DNA from: a phage
Strand: one strand, 5' to 3'
Sequence record: PX136376.1
Length of the DNA: 44,388 nt
Part shown: positions 3,297 through 42,467 of the stretch, piece by piece
How positions within the stretch are numbered: the first letter of the stretch is position 1
Layout: every line of letters starts with the position of its first letter
Position numbers and translations under genes: made by a program
The notes under the pieces: model-generated
The model's input: the letters and a program-made list of their open reading frames with translations, nothing else
What the model was told of the DNA's origin: nothing
The model's database searches: none

Positions 3297-3325
3297 AAAA
3301 GGCCCCTTACAGGGCCTTAGTTTTA
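3297..3325. terminator. bidirectional rho-independent terminator (family copy 1)
   Basis: inverted repeat AAGGCCC/GGGCCTT with A-tract upstream and T-rich tract downstream, between convergent genes; stronger reading on minus strand. Confidence 0.55.
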
Positions 3326-3863: not shown

Positions 3864-3900
3864 TTAACTGAATAGTACCCTATTATATTGGTGTCTGCAA
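3864..3900 (-). promoter_or_regulatory. conserved promoter/operator element, class 1 copy 1 (overlapping divergent sigma70-like promoters)
   Basis: minus-strand reading TTGCAG-N17-TACTAT toward the DnaN-like gene; plus-strand reading TTAACT-N17-TATATT toward head morphogenesis gene; central palindrome TAATAG-ggta-CTATTC. Confidence 0.5.
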
Positions 3901-3944: not shown

Positions 3945-4988
3945 ATGAGCTTACTTACATCCCTAATCAGCCACCAGATATGGCTACAACGCGCCGCATC
4001 CGGTGAAGTGAAAGACCTCACACCGTTCATTCAGGAAATGCGGGACGAAATCAAACGACAGGTGCTGTTATTCGGCGACGATGGGCGAAGCACTGCGCGA
4101 CTGAATAAACTGTTACGCGACCTCGAAGAGGCACTAACCGGGCTTACCGATGACTGGCAGACAAAGCTGACAGAAGACCTTAAGGAGCTGGCGGCGTATG
4201 AGGCTGAGTGGAACGTAAAGACGCTGACGGCTAACGTTAACGCGGAATTTGTTACACCTACCGCAGAACAGGTGTTGGCCGCTGCCGAGTTTCAGCCTCT
4301 GTCACTAAGGGACAAGCCGGTTGATTTCACTAAGCTGGTGGATGGCTGGGGTGAAACGGAGGTCGCGCGCCTGGTAACCGGCGTTAAGATGGGTTTTGTG
4401 CAAGGCCAGACAACACGGCAGATTATTAAGAATGTTGTTGGTGCCGGTGGGCTGGCGGACATCTCTGAGCGTAACGCAGCTACCGTAATCCGCACTGCGC
4501 TGTCCCACGTATCCAACGAAGCACGTAACGAGACGTATCGCCAGAACGACGACATTATCGAGAAGTACGAGTGGGTGTCAACGCTGGACAGCCGCACCAG
4601 TACGATTTGCAGGGCCAGAGACGGAATGACGTGGGAAATCGGTAAGGGCCCGATGCCGCCAGCGCATCCAAATTGTCGAAGTACCACAGCCCCGGTGATA
4701 AGTTCCGAGTTCGACTTCCTGGACGTAGGAGCTAAACGCGCGGCTAAAGGCGCAGACGGCGGTACCCAGGTAAGCGCGGACACCACCTATTACGAGTTCC
4801 TGAAACAACAACCAGCGTGGTTTCAGGATGAAGCGCTCGGCCCGGTGCGGGGTAAGATTTTCCGTAACAGTGGTATAACGCCGGAAGAGTTTCGCGTAAT
4901 ATCTGTAGATGGTTTCGGGAACCCGCTCACGCTTAAGCAGATGGCGGAACTCGATAAACGTGTTGCTGATTATCTGAAAGGGGAATAA
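3945..4988 (+). CDS. head morphogenesis protein (Mu F / SPP1 gp7-like minor head protein)
   Basis: C-terminal region contains HPNCRS motif typical of the Mu-F family; RBS acaggaggg before ATG at 3945 (ORF track frame opens at 3888); follows portal. Confidence 0.7.
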   Translation: MSLLTSLISHQIWLQRAASGEVKDLTPFIQEMRDEIKRQVLLFGDDGRSTARLNKLLRDLEEALTGLTDDWQTKLTEDLKELAAYEAEWNVKTLTANVNAEFVTPTAEQVLAAAEFQPLSLRDKPVDFTKLVDGWGETEVARLVTGVKMGFVQGQTTRQIIKNVVGAGGLADISERNAATVIRTALSHVSNEARNETYRQNDDIIEKYEWVSTLDSRTSTICRARDGMTWEIGKGPMPPAHPNCRSTTAPVISSEFDFLDVGAKRAAKGADGGTQVSADTTYYEFLKQQPAWFQDEALGPVRGKIFRNSGITPEEFRVISVDGFGNPLTLKQMAELDKRVADYLKGE

Positions 4989-5449
4989 TGATGGGCTTTT
5001 TCAAAGTAACTGATGTACCGTCGCGTCGCGTAGTCCAGTACGCCCGTGTGTCTGGCTCTGGCGAGAACGTGGTATTTATTGAAAATGAAAGTGTACTCGG
5101 TACACCAGTAGACGATATGCCGTTTGCTGATAAAACCGGTATTGCACTACCGGCGGCGGGTATGCTTTATGAAATTCCGTATCTGGCTGATGCTGGTGAT
5201 GTGTATTTCTCGGTGCAACCGAAAGACACGGAACTGGCAGACGGCAGCGCAACTATCACTGTCGAAGTTAAGGCGGGTAAAGCGCCGTATGCGCTGACCT
5301 GGTACAAAGACGGCAAGGAAGTGGTCAACGCCCCTGAAGAAGCTTTGTCTCTGACGGTTAACGCGGTGGGTGAATACTTCGTTAAAGTCACCGATGCCGA
5401 TGGGGTAGAGGCCGTCAGTAAAGCTGCGAAGGTTACTAAGCCGGAATGA
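4988..5449 (+). CDS. Ig-like domain protein (possible capsid accessory/decoration protein)
   Basis: 153 aa; beta-rich segment ...ALTWYKDGKEV...EYFVKVTDADG resembling an Ig-like fold; start overlaps preceding stop. Confidence 0.5.
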   Translation: MMGFFKVTDVPSRRVVQYARVSGSGENVVFIENESVLGTPVDDMPFADKTGIALPAAGMLYEIPYLADAGDVYFSVQPKDTELADGSATITVEVKAGKAPYALTWYKDGKEVVNAPEEALSLTVNAVGEYFVKVTDADGVEAVSKAAKVTKPE

Positions 5450-5519
5450 TAAAAAGCCGGAATGATAAAAAGCCGGAATGATAAAAAGCCGGAATGATAA
5501 AAAGCCGGAATGATAAAAA
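5440..5519. repeat. perfect tandem repeat, 5 copies of 16-bp unit GCCGGAATGATAAAAA
   Basis: read directly; first unit contains the stop codon of the 4988..5449 CDS; array abuts a terminator hairpin. Confidence 0.95.
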
Positions 5520-5545
5520 GCCCCGCTATGGGGCTTTATTTTTAT
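5515..5545 (+). terminator. rho-independent terminator
   Basis: stem AAAGCCCC/GGGGCTTT with loop GCTAT followed by TTTATTTTT. Confidence 0.65.
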
Positions 5546-6077: not shown

Positions 6078-6108
6078 GAATAGTACCCTATTATATTGGG
6101 GTGTGCAA
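6078..6108 (-). promoter_or_regulatory. conserved promoter/operator element, class 1 copy 2
   Basis: GAATAGTACCCTATTATATTGGGGTGTGCAA, identical to copy at 14882-14912; minus-strand TTGCAC-N17-TACTAT upstream of peptide-lipoprotein pair. Confidence 0.5.
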
Positions 6109-6174: not shown

Positions 6175-6203
6175 TTGACTTTTCACTAAAAATGTGCTAA
6201 GCT
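6175..6203 (+). promoter_or_regulatory. putative sigma70-like promoter
   Basis: TTGACT-N17-TAAGCT; downstream ~200 nt have no convincing ORF and end in a GC hairpin at 6384-6403. Confidence 0.3.
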
Positions 6204-6427
6204 CCACCTGAGCTTGTGAAGTATGAACAAGCGACCGCGGCGCGGGCAGGTAACGGAGCGGGACGTAAGTCCTGAGTGTAGTTACGCTGACGCGTTCGGA
6301 AGGGCCATACTCTATTGCTTGTGTAAAAAGTAACTGGTTTACTGAGATTACGCCGTTTCTATGTTTAAATGATAAGGACTAGCGCCCCGCTTTATGGCGG
6401 GGCTTTACTTATCGAGAAAGGGGAAAC

Positions 6428-6814
6428 ATGAATCTTAAAGCAACTGTCGTAGCAGGAGCATGTTTCATCATCCTGGTTTACGCACACGGCATCTACCAGT
6501 ATCGCAGCGGATGGAACGAAGGCCGGGCTAATCTCGTTTCGCAGCAACAGCAGAAAGCACAGGCTGAGTTAGCGAAGAAAACACAACGGCAGCAGCAGGA
6601 TGAATCGAAGGCCGCCGCCGCTGACAACGAAGGCAAGACGAAATCAGAGGTGATTACCCGTGAAGTCGTTAAGTACATTAAAACGCCTGGTCGCAGCGTG
6701 TGCACTTTTGACCCTGAGCGCGTGCAGCTCAAGTCCCGCGCCGTCGCCAACGCCAATTCCATCCCCGGATACGACGATGATGCAGCCGCCGTGCAAACTG
6801 GCGCAGCCAAGTAG
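6428..6814 (+). CDS. i-spanin (Rz-like)
   Basis: 128 aa; N-terminal TM helix (TVVAGACFIILVYAHGIY) then charged Q/A/E/K-rich periplasmic region; contains embedded +1-frame lipoprotein gene. Confidence 0.7.
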   Translation: MNLKATVVAGACFIILVYAHGIYQYRSGWNEGRANLVSQQQQKAQAELAKKTQRQQQDESKAAAADNEGKTKSEVITREVVKYIKTPGRSVCTFDPERVQLKSRAVANANSIPGYDDDAAAVQTGAAK

Positions 6815-13076: not shown

Positions 13077-13106
13077 AACTAAGGCCCCGAAAGGGGCCTT
13101 TTTTAT
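13077..13106. terminator. bidirectional rho-independent terminator (family copy 2)
   Basis: AAGGCCCC-GAAA-GGGGCCTT followed by TTTTTTATT; sits between convergent major tail gene and minus-strand cassette. Confidence 0.7.
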
Positions 13107-13336: not shown

Positions 13337-14463
13337 CCCAGCATCTCCGGTGAAATAGTTAAACGTGCGACCTCGCCATATTCGGCGCTATAAGTAATTA
13401 CATTTGCACTGCGGCCTGACATCCACCCGCCGCGGGAGGCATAGGCGTCTTTAGCCGCTAAGGTGCGGTGTTGCTCAACAATCATGTTACGGCTTTCTAC
13501 AATCTTCTGGTGGTGCAGGTGGCCTACGTGGGCGTAGCTATAGACACTCTCACCGAACGCTTTGCGGAATTTGGCAATCATAACCGGTTCGATAGCATCG
13601 AATCGCGCCTTATGCCCGTGGTGAAAGAACAACGTCGTTTTTCCGTGTTGCACCATCTTGTAAACATCCGGCGACGTATCGACAATCACTCGGCTGTCGT
13701 TCGAATATAAAACTGTGAACATTTCAGCCAGCCATACAGAGCCTACAGGGTCATGGTTCCCCTGTACGATAAGCAAGCGAACATTTTTATGTTTAACCAG
13801 TGCCATATCTACAACACGGCGTACCATACGAATCATGTAGCGGACGAGTTTCTGGTAGCGAGTGTCTGCGTCCAACACGTGACGCGACTCAGGTGTAACG
13901 GCATCCAGACTATCGAAGTGCGCGAAATCACCCAGCAGGTTAATAACTCCTGTTCCTGCATCCGGTGCTTTCTGAAACGCCGCGTCGAACCAACGAGAGA
14001 ACAGGTCTTCCGCAATCTTTATATCCCAGTCGTCGCCGCTCTCGTCGGCCCAGGCAAGCATACCGAGATGGAAATCAGATACCGTGTAAAGATTGAGTAG
14101 CTTGTCGTCGCGTTTGGCTCGAGTCGCTTTAGCCGGCGCAACTGGCGTAATCTCTGACTTCATGCCTTCAATCACGGCTTTCATCAACTCGACCTGACGT
14201 TCAGCGTCGGTGTCTGTCTTAACCCATTGCAACTTAGTATTGCCGAACTCGTCTACCAGAGACGACGTCCCTTTAATCTTGTAGCCGTCTGGGACAAGGT
14301 GGCTAACGTCACGCCCGTGGCCTACACCTTTCTTAGCCAGCTTCGCTTTACGGATACGAATAACTCGGTCTGAGATGCCGTATTTACGGGCGATGTCTAC
14401 ATTCTTCATCCCGGCGTTCAATTCTTCCTGTAACTGTTCGTCGGTTATTTTCTTCTGGGCCAT
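13333..14463 (-). CDS. HTH-domain protein fused to calcineurin-like metallophosphoesterase (Mre11/SbcD-like or phosphatase-like)
   Basis: N-terminal HTH-like segment (NVDIARKYGISDRVIRIRKAKL); metallophosphoesterase motifs DFH, GDFAHFD, GNHD, HHGH, GHLHH; RBS gaggaag. Confidence 0.7.
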   Translation of the reverse strand: MAQKKITDEQLQEELNAGMKNVDIARKYGISDRVIRIRKAKLAKKGVGHGRDVSHLVPDGYKIKGTSSLVDEFGNTKLQWVKTDTDAERQVELMKAVIEGMKSEITPVAPAKATRAKRDDKLLNLYTVSDFHLGMLAWADESGDDWDIKIAEDLFSRWFDAAFQKAPDAGTGVINLLGDFAHFDSLDAVTPESRHVLDADTRYQKLVRYMIRMVRRVVDMALVKHKNVRLLIVQGNHDPVGSVWLAEMFTVLYSNDSRVIVDTSPDVYKMVQHGKTTLFFHHGHKARFDAIEPVMIAKFRKAFGESVYSYAHVGHLHHQKIVESRNMIVEQHRTLAAKDAYASRGGWMSGRSANVITYSAEYGEVARLTISPEMLG

Positions 14464-14881: not shown

Positions 14882-14912
14882 GAATAGTACCCTATTATAT
14901 TGGGGTGTGCAA
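14882..14912 (-). promoter_or_regulatory. conserved promoter/operator element, class 1 copy 3
   Basis: minus-strand TTGCAC-N17-TACTAT upstream of the three-gene cassette; plus-strand TTACAT-N17-TATATT toward tail chaperone gene. Confidence 0.5.
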
Positions 14913-15019
14913 GTAGTGTGCTAGAATAAGTTTGCGCCTAGTGTCGCACACGAAAAGCGGGTGGTTCCCGCCTGGCGCATTAACCATAACCAGTAACCTC
15001 TTAACCAAAGGACTAAAGA

Positions 15020-27451: not shown

Positions 27452-27767
27452 TTCTAAATTCCTTATATTGTTGGGGTATGTGCTTACTATAATAGTCTGC
27501 TATTAGGGTGTCAATCTGTTTTATCGAACCAACGACAAAAACATTTGCGCCACGTTTACGTATACGCTCGTGTTCCCGTAGCTGGTGCGGGTCTGGCTTA
27601 GTGTTTTCGTCTTTCTTCACCTCGACGAACCAGACGATGCCGCCGGGTAGAATTGCCAGCAGGTCAGGAGCGCCTGAACGTCCTTCGTAGGAAAGTTTAC
27701 GAACGAGGCCACCAATGGCCTCGAATCGCTCTTTTGCGTATTTCTGGATGCGGCCCTCTTTAGTCAT
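27435..27767 (-). CDS. VRR-NUC domain nuclease
   Basis: 110 aa; PDLLAIL...VWFVEVKK pattern consistent with VRR-NUC PD-(D/E)XK core (recalled). Confidence 0.6.
   Translation of the reverse strand: MTKEGRIQKYAKERFEAIGGLVRKLSYEGRSGAPDLLAILPGGIVWFVEVKKDENTKPDPHQLREHERIRKRGANVFVVGSIKQIDTLIADYYSKHIPQQYKEFRNETRI
27486..27514 (-). promoter_or_regulatory. class 2 promoter with palindromic operator (internal to VRR-NUC coding region)
   Basis: minus-strand TTGACA-N17-TATAGT with perfect palindrome TAATAG-tctg-CTATTA in spacer/-10. Confidence 0.45.
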
Positions 27768-31970: not shown

Positions 31971-31999
31971 ACTATAATAGCTAACTATTCAGGTGTCAA
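31971..31999 (-). promoter_or_regulatory. class 2 promoter with palindromic operator
   Basis: minus-strand TTGACA-N17-TATAGT; palindrome TAATAG-ctaa-CTATTC; ~55 nt upstream of SSB-like gene start. Confidence 0.5.
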
Positions 32000-33426: not shown

Positions 33427-33785
33427 CGTAAACTCTCCAAATACAAGTTTAATGCCTGTAGCTGTTCTTCTGTGGGAATGAAAGAATCATCGCGACGTAA
33501 GTCGCTTAACTGTTGCAGCATTCCTGCGAACTTACGTCTTGCGTCAACAGCGACAATGTGATGCTTTTCACTTTTATATATTAAGGTTTTCGGGTAATCC
33601 TCAATCCTGCCAGACGATTTATTCACGCGGAGTGCGCGATCTTCATGCGCAATGTGTATGTACTTTTTGCCGTTTTGTAGCACAGTAGCTACACCGCTGT
33701 TCTTTCTGCGGTCGCCGACGGTGTAAACTTTGTCGCCGCTGCGCAAATTAAGCCACCATTTATCAGTCATACCCTGTTCTCCCAC
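33423..33785 (-). CDS. hypothetical protein (120 aa)
   Basis: ORF in leftward operon; no motif recognised. Confidence 0.45.
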   Translation of the reverse strand: MGEQGMTDKWWLNLRSGDKVYTVGDRRKNSGVATVLQNGKKYIHIAHEDRALRVNKSSGRIEDYPKTLIYKSEKHHIVAVDARRKFAGMLQQLSDLRRDDSFIPTEEQLQALNLYLESLR

Positions 33786-34039
33786 TGGTCAATTAAATGC
33801 CGTGTCTTGTGGTCGCAATGTAAGGCCCATCCATACATCGACTCGAAGACATAAAAGTCAGGCTTGGCGAAAGTTGTGCGCTTAATCTGTGACACGTGAC
33901 GGCCTATATCTTTAGGCCGTGGTACTTTTCCTAAGTACGCCATCTCTTCCATCTGGTGCGCACCGGACGGAGCACGCAATAGCCATAGCGCTTCTGTGTT
34001 ATCCCGCCTGTCGACGGCTCGGTAGAGTTGGTAAATCAT
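33767..34039 (-). CDS. hypothetical protein (90 aa)
   Basis: ORF in leftward operon. Confidence 0.45.
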   Translation of the reverse strand: MIYQLYRAVDRRDNTEALWLLRAPSGAHQMEEMAYLGKVPRPKDIGRHVSQIKRTTFAKPDFYVFESMYGWALHCDHKTRHLIDQWENRV

Positions 34040-34082
34040 AATTCCGACCCTCAGTTAAAGCGGCCCGAAGGCCGCGAGATAG

Positions 34083-34583
34083 TTATTCTTCTTCGAAATA
34101 CTTGTTCTTGATTGCTGTCAGGCGTTCCAGGTATTCAGCCAGGTCTTCGTCTTTAATCGCTGCAATCTTCATTTTCTTACCTGTGAACTCTTCCAGCAGT
34201 TCATCAGAATCATCGCACGCGGCATCGCTCGGACCTTCGTTAATTGCATCGTCGATAGCCTGAATCTGGTCGCGCAGAGACTTATAGTCTACTTCTTCTT
34301 TCTCTTCTTCCGGCTCTGGCGTCGTTTCCTCTACTTTAGCTTTACGCGGCTTGCGTTTTGGCTTCTCTTCCTCCGCCGGTTTAGTGTCAACTACGTCTTC
34401 ACCTTCAACCGGGATTTCTTTTGTTGCTTCTTCAGCGCACTCAGCTACCGCTTCTTTGGTGTACGATACCGTCTCTACTTCCAGCGGCGTGGCAACCTGA
34501 ACAACTTGTTTCGCACTGTTCGCGGCAATCAGTTCGTGCGCAACTACGAAACGTTCCAGTAATACTAAGAATTTCTCTAACAT
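34083..34583 (-). CDS. highly acidic protein (166 aa), candidate DNA mimic
   Basis: long Glu/Asp-rich segments (EEEKPKRKPRKAKVEETTPEPEEEKEE; DDSDELLEEF); second gene after early leftward promoter. Confidence 0.5.
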   Translation of the reverse strand: MLEKFLVLLERFVVAHELIAANSAKQVVQVATPLEVETVSYTKEAVAECAEEATKEIPVEGEDVVDTKPAEEEKPKRKPRKAKVEETTPEPEEEKEEVDYKSLRDQIQAIDDAINEGPSDAACDDSDELLEEFTGKKMKIAAIKDEDLAEYLERLTAIKNKYFEEE

Positions 34584-34863: not shown

Positions 34864-34893
34864 ACTATAATAGCGAACTATTCACATGTCAAT
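34864..34893 (-). promoter_or_regulatory. class 2 promoter with palindromic operator O1
   Basis: minus-strand TTGACA-N17-TATAGT; palindrome TAATAG-cgaa-CTATTC. Confidence 0.5.
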
Positions 34894-34911: not shown

Positions 34912-34927
34912 TAATATGGTACTATTC
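34912..34927. promoter_or_regulatory. second operator-like site O2
   Basis: TAATAT-ggta-CTATTC, one mismatch from O1 half-site; ~30 bp upstream of the HTH gene start. Confidence 0.4.
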
Positions 34928-34956: not shown

Positions 34957-35172
34957 ATGCAACCATCTGAACTAGGCATCCGTGTAGAACAACGCCGCAA
35001 AGAACTCGGCATCTCCCAGCGCCGTTTGGCGGCCCTGACCGGCGTTTCCCAGGGCGCGATTAACCAACTGGCACTTGGAGTAACTCAGGACGTCCGCCCG
35101 GCAACGCTGTTCAAACTGGCGGAAGTTCTGGAAGTAGACGCCAAGTGGCTGGCGTTAGGTGAAGGGGCTTAA
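34957..35172 (+). CDS. XRE-family HTH transcriptional regulator (Cro/CI-like)
   Basis: 71 aa; classic HTH LGISQRRLAALTGVSQGAINQLALG; RBS aaggag; only rightward gene inside the leftward module. Confidence 0.8.
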   Translation: MQPSELGIRVEQRRKELGISQRRLAALTGVSQGAINQLALGVTQDVRPATLFKLAEVLEVDAKWLALGEGA

Positions 35173-37739: not shown

Positions 37740-37906
37740 TTTACATTCTCCTTAATCCACGCTTCTACTTTCTCCGGGTCGAACGTACCTGGCTGGCGAC
37801 GGCCCATAATGCGAACACAACAATCCGGGAACTTACCGCTCTTTAACCAGTTATTCAGCGTGCGGCGGGTAACCCCGATACGCTCAGCTACTTCATTCTG
37901 TGTCAT
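37736..37906 (-). CDS. small HTH DNA-binding protein (AlpA/Xis-like fold, 56 aa)
   Basis: VAERIGVTRRTLNNWLKSGKFP helix-turn-helix; RBS gaggg 9 nt upstream; below ORF-track cutoff. Confidence 0.5.
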   Translation of the reverse strand: MTQNEVAERIGVTRRTLNNWLKSGKFPDCCVRIMGRRQPGTFDPEKVEAWIKENVK

Positions 37907-37938
37907 TCTAAAGCCCTCATTATCAGTTAACGAAACCG

Positions 37939-37967
37939 AGTATACATTGCGAATAATGGGAAATCAA
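37939..37967 (-). promoter_or_regulatory. putative sigma70-like promoter for leftward operon
   Basis: minus-strand TTGATT-N17-TATACT ~30 nt upstream of small HTH gene. Confidence 0.4.
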
Positions 37968-38337
37968 ACATAATTGCACCTATTGACATTATGAAAATCT
38001 TCGTTTAAGATGCTTCTATATCTTAGTTACTTTGATTCCTGTTCACCTTGTAAGAATGTTTAACCCGTGCGTCAAGCAAAGGGTTAAACACAGGCTTACT
38101 GAACATGAGAATTATCGTAACTTTCCTTCCTAAGTATCTCCGGTTGCCCTGGGCAAGCTCTATTCTCATCGGCGGCATATCTCTTAAGTATCTGATTTTC
38201 TTAATGTGCCGTAGATTCGCAACCGTAAAAATGTAACGATTATTGGGCAGGCTTAGGGCCTGCCCTTTAGTTACCAAGTAATAAGAATAAAGGCACAACC
38301 CTACCTGAAGAATCACAACGGCAACGTAACTAATCTC

Positions 38338-38368
38338 TTGCACACCCCAATATAATAGGATACTATTC
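38338..38368 (+). promoter_or_regulatory. conserved promoter/operator element, class 1 copy 4 (rightward)
   Basis: TTGCAC-N17-TACTAT with palindrome TAATAG-gata-CTATTC; 30 nt upstream of RBS gaggag and gene at 38401. Confidence 0.5.
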
Positions 38369-38901: not shown

Positions 38902-39096
38902 ATGAGTCCGTATAACCGGTTTCGTCTGGAGCGTCTACGTCACGGATTAAGTAACGCTAAATTAGCTCTCGATATATGGGAAAGTACGCCGTATTTTTCC
39001 TCGAAGGCATGGTTTGTCGCTCGCGCTACAGCGTCCGTTCAGTACCGGGAATACAAGTTAAACAGTTTCCTTAAACACCATGGGGCTAAGTTATGA
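38902..39096 (+). CDS. hypothetical protein (64 aa)
   Basis: ATG at 38902 within ORF opening at 38890. Confidence 0.4.
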   Translation: MSPYNRFRLERLRHGLSNAKLALDIWESTPYFSSKAWFVARATASVQYREYKLNSFLKHHGAKL

Positions 39097-39254
39097 GAGA
39101 AGCATTCGAACGGTGGGCCGTCGTCGATGGTCTGCCGGTTAATAAGGGTTCGAAGAAAGAGTACCTGAACGTTAAGACGCGTCTTGCGTGGCGGGCGTGG
39201 AAAGCTGGTGCGCAATATCGGGCCGGTGTAACAGGCGGTGTAACAGGTCAATAG
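39093..39254 (+). CDS. hypothetical protein (53 aa)
   Basis: ATGA overlap with upstream gene; below ORF-track cutoff. Confidence 0.35.
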   Translation: MREAFERWAVVDGLPVNKGSKKEYLNVKTRLAWRAWKAGAQYRAGVTGGVTGQ

Positions 39255-39276
39255 GTTACTATTTGTCTTTGTGTCT

Positions 39277-39386
39277 TACGCTGCTACACAGCAGCGTACA
39301 ACTTTAACTTAGTGTCGTCAAAAGGCGACACTTCCATAAGACACTGTTGGGGCAGGGATAAAGTGTCCCCAGTTAGCGACACTAAG
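39277..39386. repeat. structured intergenic region: perfect 8-bp hairpin plus cluster of 7-mer CGACACT/AGTGTCG copies
   Basis: TACGCTGC-tacaca-GCAGCGTA (39277-39298); 10-bp inverted repeat CTTAGTGTCG...CGACACTAAG (39308-39317 / 39377-39386) enclosing further GACACT/AGTGTC copies. Confidence 0.8.
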
Positions 39387-39402
39387 CACCAATAAAATTT
39401 AC

Positions 39403-39431
39403 TTGCACACTAGGATAGAATAGACTACTAT
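39403..39431 (+). promoter_or_regulatory. class 1-like promoter (diverged copy 5)
   Basis: TTGCAC-N17-TACTAT; operator-like AATAG-acta-CTATTC; 30 nt upstream of gene at 39463. Confidence 0.45.
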
Positions 39432-39462
39432 TCATTTACACGAACGAGAGGAGATACGGAAG

Positions 39463-39612
39463 ATGGTTACTTTGATGGTTATGGAATTCGAAAACAGCGC
39501 AGCAACTTACCGTGAGATGACTATGGCGCAGGCGTATCACCTGGCCTCAAACGGCAACTTCTACAAGGCGCAAATCATCAACGAGTTTGGGGTAATTGAC
39601 TATGAATTTTAG
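39463..39612 (+). CDS. hypothetical protein (49 aa)
   Basis: RBS gagaggag; below ORF-track cutoff. Confidence 0.4.
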   Translation: MVTLMVMEFENSAATYREMTMAQAYHLASNGNFYKAQIINEFGVIDYEF

Positions 39613-41855: not shown

Positions 41856-42321
41856 TGGATTGCATTTTACCGCTGCATTCGAGGGGTTCCGTGGAACTGC
41901 GTATCGTGCTACGCCGAACGAGAAGTACCTTACTATTGGCTACGGAAGCTACGGCCCTCATGTGTATGAAGGGCAGAAGATTACGAAGGGTCAGGGACTC
42001 CTGTTACTGAATCGTGATATGGCTAAGGCCGTAGCTGCGGTTGACGCAGCGGCACACCACTCCCTGACACAGGCACAGTTCGATGCAGTGTGCGACCTGG
42101 TCTATAACGCTGGTGCTGGTGTGATTGCCGCTGCCACCGGTACGGGTAAGGCACTGCGTTCCGGTGATGTTGCGACGCTGCGGGCTAAGCTGGCGTTGTT
42201 CATCAACCAGAACGGCAAACCATTACTCGGCCTGCGCCGCCGTACAGCTGGTCGTCTGGCGCTGTTCGACGGTAAACCGTGGCAGGAGGCAGAGGCTATC
42301 GGGCGCGCGGTGAAAGGTTGA
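41833..42321 (+). CDS. endolysin (T4-lysozyme/GH24-like)
   Basis: FEGFRGTAYRATPNEKYLTIGYG matches the phage lysozyme signature; GTG start 8 nt after GGAGG. Confidence 0.8.
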   Translation: MSRNISDNGLHFTAAFEGFRGTAYRATPNEKYLTIGYGSYGPHVYEGQKITKGQGLLLLNRDMAKAVAAVDAAAHHSLTQAQFDAVCDLVYNAGAGVIAAATGTGKALRSGDVATLRAKLALFINQNGKPLLGLRRRTAGRLALFDGKPWQEAEAIGRAVKG

Positions 42322-42385
42322 CACTTAGGACTAATCAGACGATACTTAAGTCACCTCCTGTTCCATCCCTCTGCTCTCCAGTTTT

Positions 42386-42417
42386 ATCCCGGCCCTGACC
42401 CAGCCGGGATTTTTTTA
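42386..42417 (+). terminator. rho-independent terminator after lysis cassette
   Basis: ATCCCGGC-cctgaccca-GCCGGGAT followed by TTTTTTT. Confidence 0.7.
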
Positions 42418-42438
42418 TCTATTTTCTGCGATGACTAG

Positions 42439-42467
42439 TTGACTATTATCTATGACCATATTATATT
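42439..42467 (+). promoter_or_regulatory. putative sigma70-like promoter (related to rightward reading of class 1 element)
   Basis: TTGACT-N17-TATATT; spacer resembles class 1 spacer; upstream of gene at 42502. Confidence 0.4.

Follow-up and report, generated by a model that had tools for sequence, protein, structure and literature searches.

We analysed a 44,388-nucleotide stretch of phage DNA (sequence record PX136376.1; hereafter, the window), which comes from a lytic E. coli siphophage of the genus Kagunavirus (Guernseyvirinae). Our subject is a predicted 31-bp promoter element that is present in five copies, the first of which occupies positions 3870-3900. We concluded that the sigma-70 promoters of this phage probably share a single operator, the palindrome AATAG-N4-CTATT, for a dimeric phage repressor, and that this repressor is probably a Cro-like protein of 71 amino acids (aa) encoded in the window; the activity and timing of the promoters, the binding and the identity of the binder are all deduced from sequence. 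Four observations carry this reading: the architecture of the sites, their enrichment in the window, the pattern of their conservation, and the turnover of the genes that lie behind the element.

Over its first 20 kb, the window is 95.5% identical to Escherichia phage GertrudWoker_Bas73 (Bas73) across 94% of the length, and further matches to this region are to hundreds of Salmonella (Jerseyvirus) and E. coli (Kagunavirus) phages. Whole-genome comparisons were made with five Kagunavirus/Jerseyvirus genomes, including Bas73, K1G, and VSt10, in which both genera are represented. In addition, 41 extra loci around the gene for an HTH_17 protein (described below) were collected from IMG/VR, and the conservation counts cover 47 related sequences.

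Five copies of a promoter-like element

The 31-mer GAATAGTACCCTATTATATTGGGGTGTGCAA occurs exactly at 6078-6108 and 14882-14912, and with one mismatch at 38338-38368 (a minus-strand match); an initial sequence-only reading of this DNA had described the first two as identical and the third as near-identical. A further copy, with two mismatches, lies at 3870-3900. The sequence-only reading had rightly called it near-identical, but had let it begin at 3864, and 3864-3869 (TTAACT) turned out to be non-conserved flank. The fifth, diverged copy retains 24 of the 31 positions, including TTGCAC-N17-TACTATTC; its existence was borne out, with its extent corrected from 39403-39431 to 39403-39433. Identity among copies 1-4 is at least 29/31. 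No copy of the 31-mer is expected by chance (none in 100 shuffles), and TTGCA-N18-TACTAT is found at exactly these five places in the window, as compared with 0.03 expected. The conserved block starts at the -35 hexamer and stops 2-3 nucleotides (nt) past the -10 hexamer, and the flanks are specific to each position.

A motif search in related phages, which had been suggested as a check, placed the element at equivalent positions in other genomes: the 31-mer matches 261 phage records, at 1-4 places each, all of them of the Jerseyvirus/Kagunavirus type, and nearly all of the matches listed fall in unannotated intergenic DNA. Of 5,426 complete E. coli genomes, none contains the 31-mer, and a host-derived origin of the element was rejected on this ground.

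In the direction from TTGCAC to TACTAT, each of the five copies is followed 20-35 nt downstream by a ribosome-binding site and a start codon, as are the equivalent copies in relatives, and each carries a -35-like TTGnnn and a -10-like TAnnnT at a spacing of 17 ± 1 bp. We therefore share the earlier view that all five copies, and the equivalent positions in relatives, have the appearance of sigma70-like promoters directed toward cassette or early genes. Three copies head minus-strand units (3844-3323, 6052-5610, and 14855-13106) that lie among the plus-strand head and tail genes, and the remaining two, copies 4 and 5, head both rightward early operons (Table 1); the claim that the element marks the morons as well as the early genes thus holds for all three cassettes and both operons. 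Co-regulation of the cassettes with the early genes is a reasonable inference.

Exchangeable cargo behind a fixed, predicted promoter

The three cassettes span 3900-3299, 6108-5517, and 14912-13081, and each has its own predicted promoter and terminator between structural genes. In the five whole genomes, the position and orientation of the element are the same in both genera, while the genes behind it differ in every genome. Slots 1 and 2 hold different genes from genome to genome, cassette 1 is absent from Bas73, and one 67-aa gene occupies slot 2 in Bas73 and slot 1 in VSt10. As the position is constant while the genes behind it differ, the promoter is the fixed part and the cargo the exchangeable one. 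Between slots, the 5′ leaders have been shuffled as well, which, together with the near-identity of copies 1-4, suggests that the copies recombine.

The 173-aa product of cassette 1 had been labelled "DnaN-like" in the sequence-only reading, a label toward which its weak similarity to a polymerase processivity factor (phrog_947, E 3.8e-9) goes some way. A 66% homologue of this protein is encoded in the Cornellvirus-like phage SE1, on the opposite strand and within the structural genes.

Morons, in the sense of Hendrix and colleagues, are promoter-gene-terminator units inserted between phage structural genes. The cassettes resemble them in being minus-strand units with their own promoter and terminator between plus-strand head and tail genes, and in varying in presence and cargo; unlike morons, all three share the promoter of the phage's own early operons, and their slots are fixed across two genera. 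Because of this shared early promoter and these conserved slots, the cassettes look like an integrated early regulon, and not like independently acquired units. A second parallel is with the PeSL cassettes of T4-type phages, which are mobile, consist of an early promoter plus a stem-loop, and flank hyperplastic regions. Here, too, near-identical early-promoter repeats border highly variable small genes, and cargo and leader modules seem to move between copies. However, the phage family and the promoter sequence are different, the repeat described here carries a palindromic operator, and recombination at the repeats is deduced from one relocated gene and from the shuffled leaders.

The palindrome recurs in other predicted promoters

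Although the five TTGCA-N18-TACTAT sites stand, sites related to the element are more numerous than the five copies that had been counted. AATAG-N4-CTATT occurs nine times in the window (0.03 expected) and the looser AATAGT-N4-TATTA 12 times (0.66 expected). Among all perfect 5-N(0-8)-5 palindromes, AATAG-N4-CTATT is the commonest in the window and also in four of the five Kagunavirus/Jerseyvirus genomes, which hold 5-8 copies each; in VSt10 it ranks second after TAATA-N6-TATTA, in which the arms of the same site are taken one base further out.

The sites outside the 31-bp element begin at 27491, 31976, 34869, 34912 (a variant), 39250, and 42434 (a variant), and most of them fall into further classes of promoter. 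In class I, that is, the five copies of the element, the 14-bp palindrome is embedded in the spacer and the -10 hexamer. Class II comprises three leftward promoters of the form TTGACA-nnn-(G/T)AATAG-N4-CTAT-TATAGT, which match the consensus at 11/12 positions and stand ahead of replication gene blocks. Their palindrome lies wholly inside the spacer, and its orientation to transcription is opposite to that in the class I copies. The class III promoter lies downstream of a terminator-like hairpin (identified by eye, ~42390-42418) that follows the lysis genes, and it heads small genes toward the terminase; it is likely to be the late-operon promoter. Depending on the promoter, the palindrome is centred at about -12.5, -15.5, -18.5, or -33.5, and core promoter elements are overlapped every time. 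The sequence-only reading had proposed the palindrome as the operator of a dimeric protein. This idea is strongly reinforced, as the palindrome turns up again in a second class of promoters, where its half-sites are invariant while its centre varies.

Half-sites are conserved and the centre is free to vary

For the conservation counts, promoters were picked by their hexamers alone. Among the 110 unique TTGACN-N16-18-TATANT sequences in the 47 related sequences, the palindrome is found in all except the class III group. For the 77 class II sequences, the information content is 1.73-2.0 bits in the half-site columns as compared with 0.46-1.05 bits in the N4 columns; 18 different N4 tetramers are present, and 70 of the 77 palindromes are perfect. 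Likewise, all 77 unique TTGnnn-N17-TACTAT sequences belong to the family of the 31-bp element, and AATAG stands at a fixed place in 68 of them, the exceptions being mainly the Jerseyvirus promoter of the helix-turn-helix (HTH) gene. At copy 5, the upstream spacer varies freely among relatives while AATAG is fixed, and at slot 3 of Jerseyvirus (TTGCAT-N17-TATTAT) the palindrome is kept but lies 3 bp closer to -35, with a new -10. Such a pattern is that expected of a binding site for a dimeric protein; neither promoter constraint nor shared ancestry would readily account for it on its own.

Nevertheless, we considered the possibility that these sequences are simply a promoter family with no dedicated operator, whose spacer is shared through descent, gene conversion, or selection for strength or DNA shape. 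The identity of copies 1-4 and the shuffled leader modules do speak for recombination. In addition, in every class the right half-site touches the -10, either overlapping or abutting it, and CTAT beside the -10 is kept in class III despite the missing left half-site; given this contact, part of the conservation of the right half-site could be promoter constraint. On the other hand, class II promoters at three slots in two genera keep both half-sites while N4 takes 18 values, and their left half-site lies at -25 to -21, where no sigma-70 contact is known. The Jerseyvirus slot 3 palindrome shifts its register with its sequence kept, and the orphan site at 39250 is perfect without a promoter. We consider a promoter family with no operator of its own unlikely.

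The reverse strand of the element

The sequence-only reading had further proposed that each copy consists of two overlapping promoters on opposite strands, face to face, so that transcription of the cassettes and of the structural genes would be mutually exclusive. We regard this model as rather improbable. The N17 spacing that it assumed for the reverse direction is not found at copy 1, where TTAACT lies 14 nt from TATATT and nothing -35-like stands 16-18 nt upstream; the corresponding hexamers are GTTACA at 17 nt in copy 3 and TCGATA with an 18-nt spacer in copy 2. These hexamers are in the non-conserved flank, and no -35 is conserved in the reverse direction. What is present is a TATAATA symmetry and, on the reverse strand, the sequence CTAT-TATATT, which has the same CTAT-TATA(G/T)T -10 context as the leftward class II promoters.

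This context counts in favor of a face-to-face pair, as do the sequences at copy 3 (GTTACA-N17-TATATT) and copy 2 (TCGATA-N18-TATATT) (9/12), the need for plus-strand transcription to restart after the bidirectional terminators, and the loss of the reverse -10 (TCTATC) at copy 5, which has no divergent gene. Yet copy 4 retains the reverse -10 although there is no conserved leftward gene beyond it, and better, conserved plus-strand promoters lie outside the element. One of these (TTGACT-N17-TAAGCT, 6176-6204) is located ~70 bp from the slot 2 element. At slot 3, TTGGGG-N16-TGcTAGAAT (14900-14927) has an extended -10 at 14919-14927, while its TTGGGG is inside the element; the TGn extended -10 occupies the same alignment column in Jerseyvirus. 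Because these plus-strand promoters are divergent (back to back) and not face to face with the cassette promoters, mutual exclusion is unsupported. Weak reverse initiation from the element may nonetheless occur.

Candidate operator-binding proteins

We ranked the 71-aa protein encoded at 34957-35172 first as the putative binder, with about an even chance of its being the right one. It belongs to HTH_3 (XRE), with a score of 49.7 bits against PF01381 (cut-off, 23 bits), and the solved structures closest to it are 434 Cro, which is also 71 aa long (query residues 6-68 of 71, E 8.5e-6), and the 434 repressor. 434 Cro binds as a dimer to 14-bp operators, and the palindrome described here is likewise 14 bp long. 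The Cro-like gene is immediately preceded by two sites, at 34869-34882 and 34912-34926, a placement that would fit autoregulation; in Jerseyvirus these two sites are degenerate. The protein is encoded in six of six Kagunavirus/Jerseyvirus genomes (the window and the five others), and its gene is unannotated in the records of Bas73 (34027-34242) and K1G (33428-33643). The Bas73 record annotates, for its part, small open reading frames (ORFs) that overlap promoters, e.g., 14296-14388.

The likeness to the 434 and lambdoid Cro-operator systems extends beyond the ~70-aa HTH_3 protein: in both, a 14-bp palindrome with conserved outer half-sites and a variable centre overlaps promoters, and two sites flank the regulator gene in a divergent promoter region. 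There are also differences. This phage group is annotated as lytic, and the annotated relatives contain no integrase or CI, so that no CI partner, lysogeny module, or immunity region was seen. The putative operators are spread over about ten promoters genome-wide as opposed to the OR/OL triplet clusters, and the half-site AATAG is unrelated to the ACAA of 434. In the absence of annotated integrase or CI genes, the system may be Cro-like in its working without being a lambdoid immunity region.

The second candidate, with a considerably slimmer prospect, is a 56-aa HTH_17 (excisionase/MerR-like) protein. Conservation between the two genera is 87-89%, and the homologues of this protein, like the palindrome, are confined to the Jerseyvirus and Kagunavirus clade. 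Its gene has a predicted promoter (37967-37939) that is free of the palindrome, and in the K1G-type protein RR is replaced by PM in the putative recognition helix while the sites are unchanged. As the half-sites are invariant across the clade, co-variation with the candidate binders gave only one contrast, with the Cornellvirus-like genomes SE1 and VSiA. These were found to have neither HTH_17 nor the palindrome set, nor a replacement palindrome shared by promoters; in both, the XRE gene is the first of the helicase-primase operon and has the same orientation.

A positive role of the palindrome, in which HTH_17 or another phage factor would act as an activator or in the loading of an antiterminator, has in its favor this restriction of HTH_17 to the clade of the palindrome (the Cornellvirus-like genomes have neither), the room that the weak class I hexamers could leave for activation, and the many intrinsic terminators inside transcription units. 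However, the position of the site varies from -12.5 to -33.5 and is always over core elements, which fits blocking better than a fixed geometry of activation; the class II promoters already match the consensus at 11/12 positions; and the operators remain unchanged where the K1G-type HTH_17 has exchanged RR for PM. We thus hold a positively acting factor to be quite improbable. Antitermination of the AlpA/Q kind, in particular, depends on a large ring domain at the N-terminus (AlpA is made up of eight helices, and its residue numbers run past 140; PMC9371919), for which 56 aa cannot suffice, and HTH_17 was rejected as such an antiterminator. As regards a Q/AlpA loading site, the palindrome lies in the -35/-10 spacer only in class II.

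A repressor-operator model and its weaknesses

In the model that we favor, the element would be a host sigma-70 promoter with the -35 TTGCAC, a 17-bp spacer, the -10 TACTAT, and a start ~7 nt further on, and it would fire toward the early rightward genes and the three minus-strand cassettes. A dimeric phage HTH protein would bind the AATAG-N4-CTATT sites and block RNA polymerase, so that early and middle transcription would be curbed or stopped in a single regulon. The Cro-like protein, as the best-candidate repressor, would also autoregulate its own gene. As a secondary effect, the identical promoter copies could provide fixed docking points for the exchange of cargo by recombination.

Several points weigh against this model, in addition to the contact between the right half-site and the -10 discussed above. 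The forward class I promoter matches the TTGACA/TATAAT consensus at 7/12 positions, with TTG and TA...T kept, and on account of this low match it is not listed by a generic sigma-70 scan. A repressor on nearly every strong promoter, the likely late one included, leaves the switch from early to late transcription unexplained. The Cro-like protein is 48% identical between the genera, with recognition helices SQGAINQ and SQSLITH, while the half-sites are identical, and a related XRE protein is present in the Cornellvirus-like SE1 and VSiA without the palindrome set. By this single contrast, the distribution of HTH_17 fits the palindrome better than does that of XRE. Finally, the available Kagunavirus RNA-seq study, with eight time points over 120 min, is too coarse for start sites (PMC12645636).

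We judge the element to be genuine and under strong selection. The repeat itself has already been reported; its reading as an operator regulon is new, although of a familiar kind. Phage fBC-Eco01 has seven PHIRE sites at equivalent positions, with the consensus tgAATAGTa-ccTATTat-T, which are called phage RNA polymerase promoters (PMC9825357). The PHIRE promoter of SGP-C, TAATAGTACCCTATTATGTT, is the same sequence (PMC8790156), and seven PHIRE promoters are reported for Golestan (PMC7203180). Where the fBC-Eco01 and SGP-C reports describe these repeats, they list them, and those passages make no division into -35/-10 and palindrome and mention no promoter classes, half-site conservation, or repressor candidate (PMC9825357, PMC8790156). 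That the element is the promoter of a phage-encoded RNA polymerase, as stated for fBC-Eco01 on the strength of PHIRE-type detection, is scarcely credible: the hexamers are sigma-70-like at 17-bp spacing, and neither the closest relative nor any other annotated relative examined has an annotated RNA polymerase gene, for which reason we take that attribution to be wrong.

As a more tentative extension of the repressor model, this virulent siphophage, which would lack its own RNA polymerase, might carry one operator in almost every strong promoter (early, cassette, replication, and probably late), with the Cro-like protein as a genome-wide governor. The N4 and the position of the site might then set a hierarchy of affinities that serves as a timing program, and the promoter might act as a standard socket through which cargo enters the regulon.

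The Jerseyvirus and Kagunavirus genera of the Guernseyvirinae are among the most often isolated phages of Salmonella and E. coli and are used in therapy and biocontrol cocktails. With the promoter-plus-operator set, their transcription units can be mapped in a testable way, and a candidate master regulator is at hand. The set would account for an early-like expression of accessory genes located among the structural genes, and it corrects the assignment, in print, of the repeat to a phage RNA polymerase. It also offers compact, portable, regulated promoters and natural insertion sites for the engineering of these phages.

Table 1. Features of the window; promoters, operators, and the genes assigned to them are predictions
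Feature	Position	Strand	Details
Class I copy 1	3870-3900	-	-35 TTGCAG 3900-3895, -10 TACTAT 3877-3872; palindrome AATAG-TACC-CTATT 3871-3884; drives 173-aa clamp-like cargo gene 3844-3323
Class I copy 2	6078-6108	-	Drives 33-aa hydrophobic ORF 6052-5951 and 114-aa lipoprotein 5954-5610
Class I copy 3	14882-14912	-	Drives 108-aa secreted protein 14855-14529, 376-aa metallophosphoesterase/exonuclease 14463-13333, and 76-aa ORF 13336-13106
Class I copy 4	38338-38368	+	Heads first rightward early operon; GAGGAG ribosome-binding site, then start codon ~38395
Class I copy 5	39403-39433	+	Diverged spacer; TTGCAC, AATAG, and TACTATTC kept; drives DUF7170 gene 39463-39612 and downstream genes
Class II promoter	34864-34892	-	TTGACA-tgtGAATAGTTCGCTAT-TATAGT, 11/12; divergent from Cro-like gene; drives leftward genes from 34835
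Class II promoter	31971-31999	-	TTGACA-cctGAATAGTTAGCTAT-TATAGT; drives single-strand-binding/annealing protein gene 31911-31285 and DNA polymerase gene
Class II promoter	27486-27514	-	TTGACA-cccTAATAGCAGACTAT-TATAGT; inside 3′ end of ORF 27767-27435; drives 27451-27260, methylase, and helicase genes; equals PP4 of fBC-Eco01
Variant operator TAATAT-GGTA-CTATT	34912-34926	+	-10 TACTAT 34920-34925; directly upstream of Cro-like gene; equals PP5 of fBC-Eco01
Class III promoter TTGACT-N17-TATATT	42434-42467 (hexamers 42439-42467)	+	Degenerate palindrome ACTAG-TTGA-CTATT overlaps -35; CCaTAT half-site abuts -10
Orphan perfect palindrome AATAG-GTTA-CTATT	39250-39263		End of ORF 39093-39254; no recognisable -35; conserved in relatives
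Bidirectional intrinsic terminator	3299-3318	both	Closes cassette 1 and portal gene
Bidirectional intrinsic terminator	5517-5537	both	Closes cassette 2
Bidirectional intrinsic terminator	13081-13100	both	Closes cassette 3 and tail-tube gene
HTH_3 (XRE) Cro-like protein, 71 aa	34957-35172	+	Closest to phage 434 Cro; best candidate binder
HTH_17 (excisionase/MerR-like) protein, 56 aa	37736-37906	-	Second candidate binder
Putative leftward transcription	Operator-free promoter 37967	-	HTH_17 and helicase-primase
Putative leftward transcription	Class II 34892, 31999, 27514	-	Replication gene blocks
Putative rightward transcription	Class I 38338, 39403	+	Early genes through lysis
Putative rightward transcription	Class III 42439	+	Small genes, terminase, and structural genes, interrupted by the three cassettes

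Neighboring features

A scan of the window with Rfam (gathering threshold) found no family, and a tRNA scan found no tRNA gene. Close to slot 2, ~235 nt of plus-strand non-coding sequence (6176-6412) are almost 100% identical between Kagunavirus and Jerseyvirus, while the flanks diverge. A promoter (TTGACT-N17-TAAGCT) and an intrinsic terminator (6384-6403) belong to this region, and the terminator stem shows a compensatory change in Bas73, where a 36-aa ORF is annotated; the region has no Rfam match, and its fold z-score is -1.96. It is a candidate for a conserved phage small RNA or for the leader of gene 6428-6814. At slot 3 (14919-14975, plus strand), a conserved GC-rich leader, GCGCC...GCGGGTGGTTCCCGC...GGCGC, comes after the extended -10 TGcTAGAAT and before the gene for the tail assembly chaperone (15020); this leader may be a structured 5′ untranslated region.

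At 5438-5522, a perfect 16-bp tandem repeat (AAGCCGGAATGATAAA x 5.3) runs from the 3′ end of gene 4988-5449 into the terminator stem. The repeat unit is present as a single copy in Bas73, S102, and VSt10 and is not found in three other relatives, and it would therefore be either an expansion specific to the window or an assembly artefact.

The ~430 bp between the HTH_17 gene and copy 4 (37906-38338; 970 bp in VSt10) are mostly unannotated in relatives and contain a plus-strand promoter (TTGACA-N17-TAAGAT, 37983-38011) and a terminator (38245-38265). They may encode a short transcript or hold a replication origin; a 115-aa minus-strand ORF that starts inside copy 4 is probably spurious. At the end of the endolysin gene (42318-42418, plus strand), TTGACA-N17-GATACT is followed ~45 nt on by a terminator-like hairpin, seen by eye, of CCCGGC...GCCGGG and then T7; the arrangement may yield a very short transcript, or the hairpin may just terminate the lysis operon. 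Lastly, just upstream of copy 5 (39284-39395), there are long-range inverted repeats, CTTAGTGTCG ... CGACACTAAG, with an inner AGTGTCG/CGACACT hairpin, which may be processing or termination structures, and a similar motif, TAGTGTCGC, recurs at 14940.

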